Assembly (NCBI GenBank): GCA_025558095.1
Contig: JAIVFI010000007.1
Coordinates: 558,001 to 622,000 of the forward strand
Origin: Hyaloraphidium curvatum SAG 235-1
Lineage: Eukaryota; Fungi; Monoblepharomycota
DNA length: 64,000 bases
Direction: 5' to 3'
The position numbers and the translations under genes were made by a program. This document shows positions 13,770 to 24,332 of the stretch, piece by piece. Numbering within the stretch: position 1 is the first letter of the stretch; every line of letters starts with the position of its first letter. The notes beneath the pieces were generated by a model, which was not told where the DNA came from, made no database searches, and worked only from the letters and a program-made list of their open reading frames with translations.

Positions 13770-16168
13770 ATGGCGACCCCGGCCACGCCCACGGCCCGCC
13801 CGTGGACGCCGCCCGACGCGTCGCCGTCGTGGTGGGCGCGGCTGCGCGACGCGATCCGCCCGTCGCGGCGGCCGCCGGACAGCGCGGCGGCGGGCATCAA
13901 CCGGCACGTCCGCGGCGGGCGGCCGGCGCCGGAGCCCAAGCGGGACGACGGCGAGCCCGACCCGTGGCGCGAGTGGCGGCTCGCGCTGAAGCGGTCGCGG
14001 ACGCTGGCGTACTCGGTGGTGTCTGCGCTGTGGGGAGGCGTCGCCTTCGGCTTCAACCTCACCGCGCTCAACTCGCCGCGCGGCGTCATCACGTGCGCCA
14101 CCGTGGCGCCCGCCGCGCAGGGCCTGGCGTTCCTGCCGCCGTGCCTGGCCGGCTTCAACAACCTCGCGTGGGGCGGCGCCGTCGCCGCCTTCCTGTGCGG
14201 CGCGCTGGTCGGCTCGCTGCTGGCCGCTCGCCTGGCAGCCGCATTCGGCCGCAAGTGGACGCTCGTGCTGACCAACCTGGCCGTGGTGCCCGGCCACGTG
14301 CTCGTCTTCTTCTCCGTCGGCCCGTGGATGTTTGCCCTCGGCAGGCTGCTGCTCGGCGTCGGCGGCGGCTCGTGCGCCACCGTCGTCTCGGTCTACCTCG
14401 CCGAGGTCGCGCCCGCGGCCAGCAGGGGCGCCATCGGCGCCACCTACCACCTCTCCATGACCGTGGGCATGCTGCTCACCATGATCCTGGGCAACTTCCT
14501 GTCCACCCCGCGCTACTGGCGCGTGCTCCTGGCCATCGGGATGGTCTTTTCGGCAGCCATGGTCGCCACCATGCCGTTCGCGGTCGAGAGCCCGCGGTGG
14601 CTCGTGTTCTCGGGCCGCTTCGCCGCCGCCAAGCGCGCCCTGCGCAAGCTGCGCGGGATCGCGCACGGCGAGCCGTCGCCGGCCGTGGACGCCGAGTTTG
14701 CCGCGCTGCTGGACGGGCTCGGGGTGCGCAGCCAGGTGCAGGACGCGGCGAGGGCGTGGTTCGAGGAGGCGGAAAAGGCCGGCGCGGCGGACGCCAAGTC
14801 GGGCTGGGTCCCGCAGCCGCTGTCGCCCGTGTCGGCGGTCAAACCTGCGCCGCCGTCGCCGCCGTCGGGGGACGCGGGCAAGCCGGGGGAGCCCGAGGAC
14901 ACGCTCTTCACCGAGGTGGAGGACGACGTGGGGCTGGGCCCCGAGACGGACGAGCTGTTTGGGCTCAACCACCACGCGTTCGAGGAGGAGGACGACGGCT
15001 CGGATTCCGAGGAGGAGCACAGCCTGCGCGCTTCGCAGGAGAGCTCGCGCGACCCCGCCGACCCGCGGCGGTCTATGTCTTCGTCTTCGCGGCGCCGCCT
15101 CCTGGGCAACGGCGCCGCCCGCTCGCCGCTCCCCATGCGGGAACTGCTCACCTCTCGCTCGCTGCGCAAGAACCTCTTCCTGGTCTGCATGCTGCAGGTC
15201 GCCCTGCCCCTCTGCGGCATCGCGGCGATCAACATGTACTCCACCACGGTGTTCTCCCGCGCCTTCCCGCAGAGCACCTCCCTCATGCTCACCGCCATCC
15301 TCGGCCCCGTCCTGCTGCTCTCCTCGCTGCTCGCGATCCCGCTCGCCGACCGCGCGGGGCGCAAGCCTCTCCTGGTTGCGAGCTTCGCGGGCATGGCGCT
15401 GTGCTGCGCGGCGATGGCCGCCGCGGGGCCGTTCTGTGGGGTGGGGGGGAGCGAGGCGGGGAGCATGGCGGCGATGGCGCACGGGCACAGGGTGGTGTCG
15501 AGGTCGGGGTCCGGGCTTGGCCTGGGCTACGGGGCGGTCGGGCACGGGGTGAATTGGGCGGAGGTGCATCGCGTGGTGCCGAGACAAGCGCCGGACAGCG
15601 ATCCGGACGACGATGACCAGGATGGGGACGACGATGACGACGACTCGGACGCGGACGGCGACGGGCAGGTGGAGCTGTCGATCGAGGTCAGCGTCCACAA
15701 GACGACGACCAACATGGTCGCCGCGGGGCTGTTCGTCGCGTTCGCGTACCTCTTCGTGGCGCTGTTTTCGGGGGGGTTGGGGGCGATCGGGGTCATGATC
15801 CTGCCCGAGCGTGGGTGTTCGCCCAGCACGAAGCGCGCTCGGATCGCTGACCGCCTTTCAATTGGCAGTGATTCCGCTGCCGGCGGTCATGTCGGCCTCG
15901 TCGCTGGCGTCGGGCCTGCATTGGATCTTCTCCATCCTCGTCTCCTTCCTGATTCCTGTGAGCCGTCCCGCCTTCGGTTCCCGCACGTCCCTGACTGACC
16001 ACACCCTTCAAACCTCAGACGATGCTCTCGGGCTTGGGAACCTACACTTTCGTCGTCTTTGGCGGCCTCAACCTTGCCTTTCTGGCCGCGGTGCTGCTCC
16101 TCATGAAGGAGACGAAAGGGTACTCGATCGACGTGCTTACGGCGGGGCTGCTGGCGATCGACGGATAG
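13770..16168 (+). CDS. MFS sugar porter family transporter with acidic insertions
   Basis: FGRK, LGRLLLG, YLAEVAPAASRG, VESPRWL, DRAGRKPLL, C-terminal KETKG; two 3' introns (~15811-15867, ~15958-16018). Confidence 0.88.
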
Positions 16169-16627: not shown

Positions 16628-16639
16628 GCAGACCTCAAG

Positions 16640-17441
16640 ATGTTGAACATGCCCGTTCTCTGTCTTCTCTTCTTAGGCGCAGGGAGACGCGCGCTCCGCA
16701 TCATCGCCGTCTGGGCACTCGTTACCGTGCTATCTTGTCACATTACCCTCGCGCACGCGGCACCGCCATCTACCGGTCTGCCACCCTACATCTCCCTGCC
16801 CCCCAGCATCGGGACGGCCGCCGCGGCCAAAGCCTATCTCGAAAAGGAGTACGCCGCCAGGGGCTACTTTCGCAACGCATCCTCCGTGCAAGGCAACGCC
16901 GTACAGCCCAACAACGTGGGACCATGCAACATGTGCAGGGACGGGCAGAGGTGGAGGCCCGTCATCAAATCGTATCAAATTGATGGGTATGTGCATGGCA
17001 AACTCGAACCCGACCGGCCGAAATAAGTGACTATAGAACGTTGCAGTTGCTCCGTGCCTAGCGGGGTCACTACGACGGCATTCAGGACGAGGTTCAGGAC
17101 CACCTTCGAGAACTGTTGCAACGCCCATGATAGGTGCTACCGTGAGTAACCGCCCCGAAGAGCAAATGTCGAACGCTTGACGTGGCCGCCCGGCAGAGAC
17201 ATGCAACAGTAGGAAAGGCTCGTGCGACAGCACATGGTACAATTGCATGTGGAACAGATGCAACAGCTTCAGCGGGAGCAGGCGCCAACAGTGCCGAAGC
17301 GACGCCGGATGGGGCAACACCGCCGTTGACTGGTTGGGTGGATTCGCCTTTTGCGGGCGTCAGAGGGAATACTGCGAATGCTATGGCACCCCTTGCCGGA
17401 AGCCGTGGTATTGCCCGTGGTCGTGGTGCTCGTGCGTCTAA
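16640..17441 (+). CDS. secreted phospholipase A2, group XII-like (spliced)
   Basis: Hydrophobic N-terminus; spliced DG|CSS...FENCCNAHDRCY|QTCNSRKGSCDSTWYNC carries the sPLA2 CCxxHDxCY catalytic motif; introns ~16987-17046 and ~17142-17195. Confidence 0.8.
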
Positions 17442-17568
17442 ATGCTTTCATGCAGCGGTCGTGCGGCGTATGTAAAGGATTTGGGGGAGTGGCGAGGAGC
17501 GGACCACTGATCGGAACCGAGGGAAGGAATGCGGCCGGGGGCTTAGATGAGATGTTCCCCTTTTGTAA

Positions 17569-19259
17569 ATGATGGGTCTGCACCTTCGTCGTGTGTCTGT
17601 TGCCCCTCATGAAGGAGACCAGGTGCACACGACCCAGCCAGCGATCGTCACTATGATACTGTCTCCCTCCACAAACGTCGAGATGGCCGCAACTGCCCAA
17701 GAATACCGCGCTCCGTCCGATTTCTCGCAGGCCGAATGGCTCGCGCTGTTCCCATGGCCCGCCAAGGACCGCGGCGCCGGACTTCCCCCCGACGACGAGG
17801 GCGCGCTCCCGGAGCCCGCCGAGGCCCAGTATCCCCTGGACGCACGTTCCGTCGCGGCTGCGCTGGCGCCTTGGCCACACTTGCGGAGGCTGTCGCAGTT
17901 CCAGCGGTCGACGGCGCTCCTGACGGTCGGGTCGACGAACCTGTGGATGCTAGTCCGCCTCGCCGCGGCGACGGCGGCCAGCTGCGCGCTTCTCGCGCTC
18001 ACAGTCGTCGAGTCGGGCGGGCGGTTCGGGCTGAAGCAGACAATTGCATTCGCCGTCACATTTTGGGGCGGCCTCTGGGTCGCAATCCTTCAGTCTTCCC
18101 CGCAGAGGCCGGGGAAGGTCGCGTCATGGAACTACGACTCGGATCCCCTTGCCGGATTCATTCGCTGGCGCCAGCTCGTTGCTGGAGACCTCAACGCGGA
18201 GGCAGGAGTGCCGGGAAGCCCCGCCCCATGCGATGCGGACGAGGACTGTGAGAAGGACGGCGGGCGTTCCGGGCGGGACTCCGTCCTTCTGCAGCACTGG
18301 GAAGGGGACGACAAGTGCCCCTGCACGACGTGCTTGGCCGACCTGGGCCCGTCCATCCTGCGGCAGCTCGTGGCTCTAATCGCGTTACACATCCTAACGG
18401 GCGGTTGGGCCGCATGGCTTCTCTCATCCTGGACGCCGCTCGTGACCATGGGTAGCAAGGCGTGGTACGGGCCCTGGGCTGTCGCCGGAGTCATCCTTGT
18501 GATTCACATTGCGGTGACTTGGTATCCGGTCGAGGTGCTCGCGCTGAGAAGCACGCGGTGCTCGGGCGTCATGACACCCACCCTCCGGCTTCTCCGGCGC
18601 GCCGTGGCCGCGAACCTCATGTCGGTCCTGGACGTTTGCCGGGGCGCTGCTGACAACTATGACCGGCACATCTCTCTGCTGATCCAGCTCCGTCATCGCC
18701 TTGGAGCTGCAGGTGCCGTGAGGCTTTCGGCCGTGGATGCCCACACCAGAGGGTGGATCTTCGTGAGCATGACGTTCGTCCTTTCCGTTATCGTGGTCGC
18801 GGTGAGAGTTTCGTGCTCTTGCTGCGGTCGTCCGCAGTCCTGATTCTGCCGCAGGCCGTCGGAGGGTGCATCACCGCAGGAAGCATTGCCAGCATCGGGG
18901 CCCTGTTCGGCATTTTTTCTTTCGACATCTATCTCGCCGCGTACAGCAATGGGCTGGCCTCGGATGCCGGCAAGCTCTACGACGCCGCGCTTGTCCGGTT
19001 GCGGGAATGGCGCGCCCGCGACTACGCCACCATGATCATCGACCCCGCCCACGCCGAGCGCATTGCGCGCGTCGAGAGCCTGCTGCGCTCGTACAGGGAC
19101 GTGGCGGGTCTGCAGGCGACGCTGCTGGGGTTCCCGATCACGTTCCAGGTCGTGCGGACGTTCCTCGTTACCACAGTGACAGTTGCGATCGGCCTGTGGA
19201 GTCTGCTGCGGGGCGCCGGGCTGTTTTTCACCATCGAGAGCATATGTCCCTCCTACTGA
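17569..19259 (+). CDS. 7-transmembrane orphan protein, gustatory-receptor-like (7TMIC/DUF3537-like) candidate
   Basis: Intron 18802-18854 joins two ORFs in frame; seven hydrophobic segments; C-terminal LQATLLGFPITFQVVRTFLVTTVTVAIGLW; start codon uncertain (17569/17655/17682). Confidence 0.6.
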
Positions 19260-19438
19260 TCGCGGCACCTTAGGCGAACGAGCCGCGGACCTACATGCAG
19301 CTCCACTCCCCGCCAGCGTCGCGTCCTCCCGCACCGCGACGGATCGCACGCGCTGTTCCTCGGGGACACGGGGGAGTGGGCGGTGGTATAGTCCTGAGCA
19401 TCGTGCCACGGGTGAATGGCTGGTCCGGGAGCGAGGCT

Positions 19439-21394
19439 TTACAGCGTGTCCCTGTACGCCTCGCGCAGCCAGCCGCCGACCGTCCCCGCGATCTGCAGCG
19501 CGAGAAACTTGGAGTAGTACCTCTGGTGTGTCGCCGCCCCGCCAAAGATATAGAAATCGTCCAAGTGGAGGTGTCGCTTAAAGCATCCCCGCAGCTCGCC
19601 CTCAGAGTCGAGCCCCCAGGTGGCGTCCATCCTCGCGCCGATCTCGGCGCCTCCCTCGCCAAAGACCCGCTCTGCCACCGCCGCTGCGCTGATATCCATA
19701 AAGCCGGTGCACCAAACGATCGCATCGGCGTCAATCTCGGTGCCGTCGCTCAGGAGCAGTCCGCGCTCTGTGTAGGCGGCGGGCACCACGCCCGAGCGGA
19801 TCCCCACAGAACGCTCCGAGATGAGCTTGGTGCCGCCCATATCAATGTAGTGGCGCCCGGCTTTCTCCATGACGTTCTGGGTTATGTCTCCTTCGGTCGT
19901 TACCACCTGGAAGCCGGCCTCGGCGAGGGCCTTGTATCTGTCACTGGGGGACGGTCGGCTCGCGAAGCAAACAGAACCAACACCACCCACGGCTCAGCCA
20001 GCGCCTTCATCCTGTTTCCCATCCTCGCCAACTGGCCCTCACGGCAATCGGTTGGCCCATGGTCGCCTTGTCCAGAAGGTCGGCAGGGATACCATCGTAC
20101 CGCCCAAACGCGGCCTCGACGTAGTCCACCGGAATCACGTACGTCGGAGACCGCTGGATCATGGTCGTTCGAATGCCGGCGCTGTGGCAGTCTTCCAGCA
20201 CGTCGAACGCAGTGTTGGCGGACCCAACGACTACTGCGGATTGGCAGCCACGCTCCACGAGCTGCTTGGCGTTCTTGTACGCGACCGAATGCACGCTCAC
20301 GCCGCGGTAGGTGTTCTTTCCTGGGATCTCCGGCAAGTAGGGAGCACTGGAGCCTAGGCCTGTGGCCTGCACTAGTTGACCGGCACTGACCGTCTTCCTG
20401 CCCTGCGGGGTTGACAGCTCCGCAATCCAGCGTCCGGAGGCGGCGTCCCGGCACGTGGAGAGCAAATGGGAAGAGAGGAGGAGGTTGATGCCCAGGTTCT
20501 TGACGAGGAGCTCGACCTGGTCGGCGAGGTTGTCGCGGGAGAGGCACCGCGGCAGGTCCTTCGGGTATGCTGTCGCGGGCTGGCGGTCAAGGACATTCCT
20601 AACTCATGCCATGAAAACCCACGGACATACGGCATCTGCACGGAGCTTGCGGGCAGGTGGAAACGCATTGGATCGTAGCGCAGCCGCCAGTTGTCACCCG
20701 GGCGCGCGTTGCGCTCGACGACGAGGTAATCCATGCCCAGCTCCTTCAACCGCGCGCCGAGGATCACGCCCGAGTTGCCACCCCCGACGATGAGCACGTC
20801 CGTGCTGATATCGGTCTCGTCCGACACGTTTCGCGCGGGGAGGGCGAGGTTGGAGGGGACCCACGGTGTCGAGTCAACGGCATCCAACCACGTGGTGAGC
20901 GTCCAAATCTTCCAACCGGACGAGCCGTCCGGCTGCTTCTCCGAAACCAGCTTGGCGCTGCCAGTGCACCGAGCCGCCGGCTCCCCGGTTGCAAACGCGA
21001 ACGAAAAGTCCACCACCGTAAGGTTAGGCCCCGACGGCATGCAACGTGCCGAGTTCGGCATCACGGAAAAACCGGAGGGTCGCCGGAGCCTTGCCAGTGC
21101 GGCGAGGTTCCGCGGCGCGGAGCTGTCCGCGAAGGTCCTGAAGTGGTACGTAAAGGCCAGCGTGTCCCGCCAGTAGCATTGCTCCTTCAAGAAGCACTCG
21201 GCGAGTCGGTCCGAACTTCCGTTGGCCAAAGCGTCGGCGAGGCGTGTCAGCGCGGCGGAGGCGAGCTCCGCGGCGGCGCCCTCGGCGGAAGGCGGCGCTG
21301 CGCCGCCGTCCGTTGGAAAAGGCCGGTATATTTCAGAATGGAGGTCCGCGCGTCGCGGATATCCCGCCGCGGTGCAGTTGGCGGCCGAAGGCAT
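19439..21394 (-). CDS. flavin-containing monooxygenase (fungal FMO/YUCCA-like with N-terminal extension)
   Basis: FAD motif IVGGGNSG, FMO signature YRGVSVHSVAY, NADPH motif VVGSANTAFD, WCTGF; several short introns. Confidence 0.88.
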
Positions 21395-21810
21395 CGCGCA
21401 CAGAGGTCTAAAAGGACTGTCTCCCAATCCAGGGTCCAACGGTTTTCAGACCCAGCTGTAACTGGACGCGGATTCTGATTGCTGGAAGTCTCCGCACTTT
21501 CAAAGCTTGTATATCTCGGGCTCAGACCGATCTCGGTGAAGAGTTACAGGATCGCGCATTCTGGCATTGACGGTGCGTCTGAGCCTCGAACAGGCTGGTG
21601 TGACTCCCATCCTTGGTCTCAACCTGAGTGCACAGCGGTTGTGGCCACGCAAGCATAAAGGGGACACTCTCCGTGCTACCTCCTCATCGAACTCGTGCCG
21701 TCGAAAAGGTGGGCGAAGTCGGTTCCCGCACGCTTGAGCCCTCACAAAGCTTCCGCCTTGCAGACTCGCCACCACCAAAGCGGATCCGTCACAACACCGA
21801 GCACACCACA

Positions 21811-22161
21811 ATGTCCGGAAGCGGCGACCAGCCCAGCAATGTGGTCCTCTTCGACTCCCAGGTCGCCGGCGGGGAGGACCGGCGCAAAGTCGACGAGTTT
21901 CTCTCCAGCACCTTCGGCGGGTACAAGTACACCGCAGAGACCGGCAAGGACCCCACGGTTTACGGAAAATACGTGGAACCGGTGCTCCACGCGACCGAGC
22001 ACTACGCCAGGGGCGTGGCTTACAACAATCCGGTCGAGATCGCGAGGGCCAAGGACGAACTCCGTGCCGTCGGCACGGGGCTCAACAACATGGATCACAA
22101 GTACCAGAAGGAAGCAAAGGCGGTAGCAAACGCCAACACCAAGCCCGCGCCGAACAACTGA
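21811..22161 (+). CDS. 116-aa intronless hypothetical protein
   Basis: Clean ATG-TGA ORF with natural composition and GC3 bias (MSGSGDQPSNVVLFDSQ...). Confidence 0.65.
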   Translation: MSGSGDQPSNVVLFDSQVAGGEDRRKVDEFLSSTFGGYKYTAETGKDPTVYGKYVEPVLHATEHYARGVAYNNPVEIARAKDELRAVGTGLNNMDHKYQKEAKAVANANTKPAPNN

Positions 22162-22325: not shown

Positions 22326-24332
22326 CTAGGCACCGCTGCGTTCCCATTGGCCAAACTCCTCCGCATTCGCCATCTCTTGCTTGGAGAGGCTAGTTATGCC
22401 GATGCTCTGATCCAACTGCTCCTGTTCCAAAGGAGAACCCGCGTCCTTCGCGAGGGCAATGGCCAGCCTCAAGGCGTTCTTTATCTGCCTCCCGTTCAGG
22501 GTGTGCTGCGCGAGCTGCCCGAAGTCCAGAGTACCGACTTCGATGCCCGCACGAGCTACGAGGTTCCTCCACACCTGCTCCCTGGCCTTGGGATCCAGGT
22601 GGAAGTACCGCAACGCCAACGTGACGCGGGATTCAAAGGCGGGATCGAACTCGCGCACGCGGTTGGTCGTGAGGAACAGGATCCCCCGATGGTACTCGAG
22701 CAGCCTGAGCATCACGCATACCATGGCGTTTCGAAGAACGTCCGAAGTGCTGCGCTTCTCCAGGAACACGTCGGCCTCGTCGATGAGCACCAGGGCATCC
22801 CACTCGGCGCAGAGATCCAGCACCTCGCCGAGCCGCTTCTCCATTTCCTCGGGAGTGATGCCGAGCTCTCCCATGCTCACGTAGTACAGGGGCCGCTTGA
22901 GGACCTCGGAAATCGCCTCGGCGGTGAGGGTCTTCCCAACGCCAGGCGGGCCGTGCAGCAGGAAGATGCTGCCGCCGCTCTTGCCCTCGATGATGTCCTC
23001 AAAGCTGTCCGCGCCGAACGTCACCAACGCTCTGATCAACCGCTTGTGGTCGGCGGGGAGCACTAGCTGGTCGAAGGCCTTTTCGTTGAACCGGATCTCG
23101 CGCAGTCCCTCCACAAGGACGTGTCCCCATGCCTTGGACGAGAAGCTGAAGCCCGTCAGGGCCGGCCAGGTGAACTTGAGAAGCTGCTTGGGGAGCTCCC
23201 GCATTATAAAGAGCGAGTCTGGAGCGGTGCCGCCGGATTTCGACCGCTGGTCCGCGATCCAACGCCGGTAGCGCCCGGCTGTCTGGATAAGCGCATTCGA
23301 CGCCTCGTCGGCCGCCTGCAGAACTTCGGTGTTAGTTTGTCGGTGCGTATGCGCCGAACGCTACAGTACCTGCGAAGGGTAGTGCCCGAGCTGGATTCCG
23401 CGCGCCGTGTCCAACATTAACCGCCCCGATCCCGAGGCAGCTAGACCGCCCTGTTTCTTGGCACCGCCGTGAATGAAGAACGTGCCCGAGTCGTACTGTA
23501 CGAAGGCCGGTCCTCCGATTCCGTACCGCGAGTAGGCCAAACCTCGCTCTTCGAACCTTGCCTGGTCCGCTTCGTTCATAGGCACATAGGCGAGGTCTCC
23601 GAGCGGTCGTGCTCTGACGCCTTGCCAACCTGAGAGTACTTCCTCAAAGCGCACGACAGCAAAGTGTTCGGCACCGACGGCGACGACAAACTCGAGCACG
23701 AGGTGGAAACCCTTCTCGAAACCCATCAGCGTCCTCTTGACGTCGTAGTAGGACTCGACGACAAAGAAACCGGCCTGCACGCCTCCCAGCCCGGTCGCGC
23801 CGGCGACGGCGGTGCCCGGCACGTACAGCTCGCCGAGGGCTTCGAACGTGATCTTGCCGCCGGCGATGAGAGCGCGGTACGCCGCATTGTCCTCGGCAAA
23901 CAGCCCCTCCGCAGCAGCAATGAGCTCGTCCAGGCCCGGCACGCTGAGGGGCCGGCTCGCGCTCTCAATCTGGAAGCCGAATGCGCTCAGCTGGTCCAGG
24001 GTCCGGCGCCGAATGTAGAGGGAGAACCACGGCGCCGAAGGGTCCTTCAACCCCGCGTTGTACTCGCGAATCGAGAAGCTTAGGGACTGCAAACGCCCCA
24101 GGACGTTGAAGAGCTCGTCGCGGGTGACCAATTTGAGGGGCCCGGCGCCGAGAAAGTGCCTGACCACGGCGGACAGGGCCACAGTGCCCGGCTCCGCTTT
24201 TGCCCGCTGGGGAAACGACACGCGCTCGTCGCCGGTGGCTCCCTCTATCACAAAAGCGGCCTCGGGATCCGCATCGGCAGCCGCACGCGGAGGTCCCGCG
24301 GGCGTAGGAGGGGGCGGCGGGGCAGGGGGCAT
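22326..24332 (-). CDS. fungal-type single-module AAA+ ATPase
   Basis: Walker A LHGPPGVGKT, Walker B LIDEADVFL, LFLTTNR, DPAFESR, LNGRQIKN; intron ~23368-23317. Confidence 0.9.

Follow-up and report, generated by a model that had tools for sequence, protein, structure and literature searches.

A gene at positions 17653..19259 (+) of the window, the whole 64,000-nucleotide stretch of Hyaloraphidium curvatum (phylum Monoblepharomycota) DNA analysed here, encodes a seven-transmembrane protein (P0001) that, judging from its structural models, very probably has the fold of the insect Or/Gr proteins (the 7TMIC fold). We class the protein as a probable 7TMIC that belongs neither with the narrow-sense Gr/GRLs nor with PHTF. 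It belongs to a family that is likely to comprise 100–200 genes in this fungus, a figure that is an estimate and not an assembly count.

Excision of a 53-nt GT..AG intron (18802..18854, +) leaves a frame that is open through the stop at 19259 and counts 545 codons from 17569. Exactly these 53 bases are absent from a contig of run X1, a run that is RNA only by guess. The same contig also lacks the GT..AG and CT..AC introns of both neighbouring genes and therefore behaves as spliced RNA. It joins exactly across 18802–18854, so transcription and splicing of the 7TM gene occur on the + strand, and the intron proposed in the sequence-only reading is confirmed; 14 alternative in-frame GT..AG choices were dropped, as the contig joint fixes this one. 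The start given in that reading, 17569, is by comparison probably 28–38 codons too early. P0001 is annotated as a ‘hypothetical protein’ of H. curvatum of 517 aa, with 100% identity to the exon 1 query, and its sequence is that of the spliced product beginning at Met 17653. Contig coverage of exon 1 runs over 17672–18800, so the transcript-type contig starts just 5' of an ATG at 17683, although a contig end is no proof of a start codon and the lack of coverage over 17525–17671 says nothing on the 5' end. The conserved motif E-W-x-A-h-F-P lies at a median of 21 residues after Met1 in the 49 full-length relatives in which it was found, and at 56, 28 and 18 residues from the candidate starts 17569, 17653 and 17683, respectively. 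Given the annotation, the contig start and this spacing, the true start is more likely to be 17653 or 17683 than 17569. With the annotated start, coding exon 1 (17653..18801, +) holds residues 1–383, and coding exon 2 (18855..19259, +), an open frame with a family-profile match at E 9e-49, holds residues 384–517 and the stop. The C-terminal sequence quoted earlier for this locus is present in the protein.

The upstream gene at 16637..17441 (+), with three introns in the transcript contig, encodes a Cys-rich and probably secreted protein with a CCxxHDxCY motif, which we take to be phospholipase A2-like, and a weak Pfam match to PLA2G12 (E 0.021). The convergent gene at 19274..21445 (-) is flavin-dependent oxidoreductase/monooxygenase-like (Pfam FAD_binding_3 and Pyr_redox), and a single contig covers both it and the 7TM gene, a sign either that their 3' ends overlap or that the assembly has merged them. 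Also nearby are an MFS sugar transporter at 13773..16000 (+; Sugar_tr, E 6e-65) and, at 22326..23360 (-), an AAA ATPase that carries a fungal lid domain; neither has an evident tie to the 7TM gene. A small ORF of ~143 codons (21730..22161, +) has no Pfam match.

Hydropathy gives seven hydrophobic segments, with TM2, TM4 and TM6 each followed by a long polar loop, and an N-terminus free of hydrophobic stretches, in agreement with the layout and the lack of a signal peptide claimed earlier; the seven segments are also helices in the predicted model. K+R counts of 6–9 in the N-terminus and IL1–3 against 0–1 in EL1–3 and the tail predict, by the positive-inside pattern, an intracellular N-terminus and an extracellular C-terminus. 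This charge pattern upholds the N-in topology that had been proposed and argues against a GPCR/rhodopsin-like (N-out) identity. Over 104 alignment rows, median loop lengths are 9, 15 and 5 residues outside versus 65, 75 and 63.5 inside, and IL1 measures 87 aa in P0001 against a median of 65 aa in its relatives. The cytosolic N-terminal motif E-W-x-A-h-F-P (17734..17754, +; P34 in 88/104 rows) precedes TM1, a short EL1 and TM2 (17938..18096, +; model helices 96–120 and 127–148). Beyond IL1 lie TM3, EL2 and TM4 (18343..18543, +; helices 231–258 and 274–297), with TM4 resuming as 304–330 after a break. The predicted anchor, consisting of TM5 (336–386), TM6 (391–442) and TM7a (447–462), spans the intron (18658..19091, +) and includes the invariant C388 and N415. 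It is followed by a beta-hairpin turn (472–477, with G475) and TM7b (480–503), the predicted pore helix (19113..19214, +), in which R484, T485, T492, G496, S499 and L500 are residues of note.

Several expectations for the insect fold, set out in advance, are found in the model. TM7 is split, with a beta-turn at L474–G475, the long TM5 and TM6 helices are both continuous, and the P0013 model has the same split-TM7 layout. Insect Or/Gr structures are the top matches in the structural search, and in two models only Or/Gr chains top the list, aligned over ~80–95% of length at 6–13% identity and an rmsd of 5–6 Å. GPCR, rhodopsin and AdipoR chains were not among the structural matches listed for the two models. 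Foldseek TM-scores to known 7TMICs reach at most 0.47, against a criterion of >0.5, and the accepted member Vitrella GRL1 also has 0.47 (criteria as given in 10.1101/2023.08.30.555482). The Pfam HMMs 7tm_7, 7tm_6 and DUF3537 matched 0/92 members at E<=0.1 and none of P0001–P0003 at E<=10, and the one-round family profile had no match by sequence in the PDB. Language-model neighbours of P0001 (Atlas) are ciliate-rich or unrecorded clusters at 0.95–0.96, with DUF3537 at 0.91. A TMEM39/Tmp39 cluster (PF10271) scores 0.93 and 0.89 in the same resource. TMEM39 has 0 occurrences in the available text of the two 7TMIC screening papers, and may thus have the 7TMIC fold without having been recognised.

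Conservation is highest in TM7b (entropy 1.58 bits) and lowest in TM1–6 (2.86–3.27 bits). The canonical TYxxxxxQF had been described as lost, and (T/S)Yhhhhh(Q/K/E)(F/L/M) is indeed found in TM7b of 0/92 full-length proteins, on which ground a narrow-sense animal Gr/GRL identity was rejected; the motif is termed diagnostic, not definitive, for GRLs (PMC7746228). What had been missed is a degenerate T-h-hhGhh-S/G/T-V/I/L, probably in register with TYhhhhhQF, which in the form T-h-x2-G/A-h-W/F/Y-S/G/T-V/I/L occurs in 122/152 proteins. As a paralog marker, the suggested LLGF..T...RT did not hold up (0/152 literally and 1/152 with four spacers, versus 135/152 for a relaxed form). In 8/11 aligned rows, read from the last aligned residue per row only and restricted to AbOrco, MhOr5, BmGr9 and Gr43a with other Or/Gr left out, L500 coincides with the outer gate and G496 with the inner gate (BmGr9 I440/Gr43a I418), and T492 and T485 match T436 and T429, respectively, the hydroxyl rings of PMC11100771; the register is displaced by one residue in the other 3/11. 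Family columns show T492 in 98/104 rows, T485 in 61/104, G/A at 496 in 99/104, S/G/T at 499 in 102/104 and V/I/L at 500 in 97/104. If the majority register is right, the inner gate would naturally carry a small residue, while the shifted register would give two Leu gates. In insect Grs, TM5 links the ligand pocket to TM7b, and the substitutions I440A (BmGr9) and I418A (Gr43a) increase resting current (PMC11100771).

Tetramer modelling with four copies of residues 270–517 scored 0.66 versus 0.00 for the best control, with contact agreement of at least 33% and pLDDT of at least 56, although the job is unlike the calibration set and its pass may reflect memory of solved Or/Gr tetramers. The pass mark had been calibrated on microbial (21/30 homo-pairs vs 0/23 single chains) and eukaryotic proteins (17/29 vs 0/30). 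Confident inter-subunit contacts link 426–440 with 452–465 and 336–344 in the anchor, and there are none in TM7b. The model thus predicts assembly as a tetramer via the cytosolic anchor of TM5, TM6 and TM7a.

The expansion guessed at from this one locus exists and is much larger than a single locus could reveal. A phmmer search of 1.84 billion 50%-cluster representatives gave 252 proteins at E<=0.001, of which 113 also passed E<=1e-10; the best 150 of the 252 formed the listing, and 152 proteins were analysed in all. Of these, 146 reach the C-terminus and form 144 groups at 95% identity, and are therefore not pieces of a few genes. Among the 92 proteins of 440–600 aa, nearest-neighbour identity has a median of 36.7% and a maximum of 57.5%, and the all-pairs median is 28.5%. 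The tree is star-like, with long terminal branches (median 0.76), and six environmental or Logan records marked on it interleave with named ones. Source records were checked for 30 matches, chosen non-randomly as three sets of ten with long-branch outliers as the last; 9/10, 5/10 and 8/10 belonged to H. curvatum and the remaining 8/30 were environmental or Logan records. Together with P0001, P0002, P0061 and P0066, this makes 26 named H. curvatum genes, on many contigs, and extrapolation of 22/30 gives an estimate of ~110 such genes in the top 150. No other named species, Spizellomyces included, occurred among the 34 source-checked relatives, and word-indexed searches returned just 3, 3 and 4 proteins, an insensitivity that makes the absence of, for example, Gonapodya weak evidence. 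Within the window, the family profile matches only the 17653–19259 gene, and in a metagenome DNA scan 0/167 pattern hits were confirmed.

P0003, P0016, P0022, P0079, P0107, P0120, P0125 and P0144 are JGI, ENA or Logan records in the family, P0003 clustering with P0001 and P0002 at ~42% identity. Uncultured relatives probably share the expansion. Four proteins of 710–788 aa (P0055, P0103, P0121 and P0119) resemble gene-model fusions by eye: P0103 comprises two partial receptors and so hints at tandem copies, and P0055 continues into an unrelated signal-peptide-like protein.

Two family-wide elements had escaped the sequence-only reading and were not met in the published 7TMIC descriptions consulted. 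One is a Cys/His motif, H-x3-D-x2-C-x-C-x2/4-C, located in IL1 just N-terminal of TM3, which at relaxed spacing occurs in 86/92 full-length members and in 0/1840 shuffles; in P0001 it reads H215-x3-D219-x2-C222-x-C224-x2-C227 (18295..18333, +). Its columns are H in 102/104 rows and C in 103/104, 102/104 and 103/104, and it is about as conserved as the pore helix (1.67 vs 1.58 bits). A His with three Cys is a usual Zn ligand set. Because of this set and the cytosol-facing position, where disulfides are unlikely, the motif is likely to bind Zn, with acylation or an Fe-S site as possible alternatives; we found no report of a Zn site in a 7TMIC in the literature. The other element is an extracellular Cys pair, C388 (104/104 rows) and C514 (100/104), the latter in the extracellular tail (19215..19256, +). 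As both residues lie outside, are near-invariant and adjoin the short model strands 388–390 and 507–509, they likely form a disulfide that ties the pore-helix tail to the TM5–TM6 loop.

By analogy with the insect receptors, we consider it moderately probable that the protein forms tetrameric cation channels gated by ligands and is part of a chemosensory repertoire, with ligand gating and chemosensation as the parts carried over from insects. A small molecule from the water would bind the variable TM1–6 pocket and shift TM5/TM7b; the pore, with T485 and T492 along its wall and L500 as its cap, would open, and cation entry would then signal to the cell. The Zn-bound IL1 motif may brace or tune a cytosolic module, and the C388–C514 disulfide would hold the TM5–TM6 loop and the pore-helix end together. 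H. curvatum has lost its flagellum and is non-motile (PMC6899921), and the channels would therefore feed into growth, spore formation or defence, not into swimming.

The same fold and tetramer could instead serve a surveillance system that detects non-self (bacteria, parasites, grazers or incompatible cells) and sets off ion influx or the death of the cell, in place of sensing nutrients or cues. Non-self receptors of fungi typically form large families that evolve fast, and the large, star-like, lineage-restricted radiation, its low all-pairs identity and the non-motile host recall them. This is nevertheless unlikely, as no fused effector or NLR-type domain was seen (Pfam yields only single weak matches among 92 members) and the long terminal branches speak for a radiation that is old, not for an arms race still under way. 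Channels partly open at rest and regulated from inside, with Zn2+, redox state or acylation acting on the IL1 cluster, would account for the IL1 motif being as conserved as the pore helix and for the small inner-gate residue at the site where the insect Ala substitutions raise resting current; paralogs would then differ in selectivity or location, not in outside ligand. We regard this too as unlikely, since the register is off by one in 3/11 rows, a structural role is simpler for an invariant metal site, and the diversification of TM1–6 over >100 sequences would be left unexplained.

A further reading keeps the fold but replaces the channel with a role inside the cell, such as an ER scaffold or the handling of lipids or proteins, as suspected for PHTF, or takes the protein to be TMEM39-like. 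PHTF1 is chiefly in the ER (PMC9998090), the Tmp39 cluster scores close to P0001, and only some insect 7TMICs have a known function. PHTF proteins are, however, conserved, with one or two copies and an IL1 of >300 aa (PMC9998090), whereas the short IL1, the hyper-expansion and the conserved TM7b of the present family make such a role improbable. The whole resemblance might be convergence of helical bundles in an unrelated transporter or membrane protein, as 7–11% identity, an rmsd of 5–6 Å, TM-scores <0.5 and the lack of a sequence match would allow; with Or/Gr chains alone leading in two models over most of their length, and with split TM7, anchor contacts and motif Thr register all concurring, this is highly improbable.

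We found no report of the P0001 family, nor of Hyaloraphidium gustatory receptors, in the literature. Fungal 7TMICs in a 2023 screen were confined to Chytridiomycota and Blastocladiomycota, and ‘Gonapodya’ and ‘Monobleph’ are absent from the available text of that preprint (Himmel 2023; 10.1101/2023.08.30.555482); the PSI-BLAST matches in the screen's data could include some H. curvatum proteins. It is possible, at slightly less than even confidence, that a non-swimming early-diverging fungus independently built a ligand-gated 7TM channel repertoire of insect scale (100–200 genes). This would be the first large fungal 7TMIC expansion and would define a new subfamily, marked by a Zn module in the cytosol, a pore helix tethered by a disulfide and Gly/Ala at the inner gate; it would serve as the main chemosensory or non-self-sensing system. 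Variable pocket helices combined with a constant pore helix in many copies are a genomic signature of sensory diversification, and the probable Zn site and Cys pair would be new structural elements on the 7TMIC fold. The function of 7TMICs is known almost only for insect proteins (10.1101/2023.08.30.555482), and unicellular members are candidate chemosensors. The repertoire bears on whether the receptor role is ancestral or has arisen repeatedly, its dozens of natural variants from one fungus are a resource for expression screens, and its non-swimming host raises the question of what such channels control without chemotaxis.

Among known systems, PHTF (Class-B 7TMIC) and P0001 have a similar Z to Orco (11.8–12.9 vs 11.0), and both have an extended N-terminus and IL1. 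PHTF is conserved and low-copy, with an IL1 of >300 aa (PMC9998090, 10.1101/2023.08.30.555482), and the far shorter IL1 here led us to reject a PHTF/Class-B identity. Plant DUF3537 proteins (PF12056), like the P0001 family, have no recognisable TM7 motif, and they form families of 4–12 members (PMC7746228); the P0001 family has no PF12056 match. SpunGRL1 and SpalGRL1 of Spizellomyces, fungal 7TMIC candidates with one gene per species as against many in H. curvatum, share the N-in 7TM layout and keep 1/4 TM7 motif positions (PMC7746228), and visual inspection of the first ~400 residues of each, as given in the PMC7746228 supplement, showed no H-x3-D-x2-CxC. The insect Or/Orco/Gr structures compared were AgamOR28 (8v3c/8v3d), AaegOR10 (8v02), MhOR5 (7lic), AbOrco (6c70), DmGr43a (8jm9) and BmGr9 (8vc1). 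Unlike these, the P0001 family has no TY..QF and no identified Orco-like conserved co-receptor, and it adds a structured N-terminal/IL1 module with H/C/C/C, a pair of extracellular Cys and, at the probable inner gate, a small residue. Common to both, by prediction for the P0001 family, are the N-in 7TM fold, long TM5/6, split TM7 and anchor tetramer, together with a conserved pore helix, variable TM1–6 and many paralogs.
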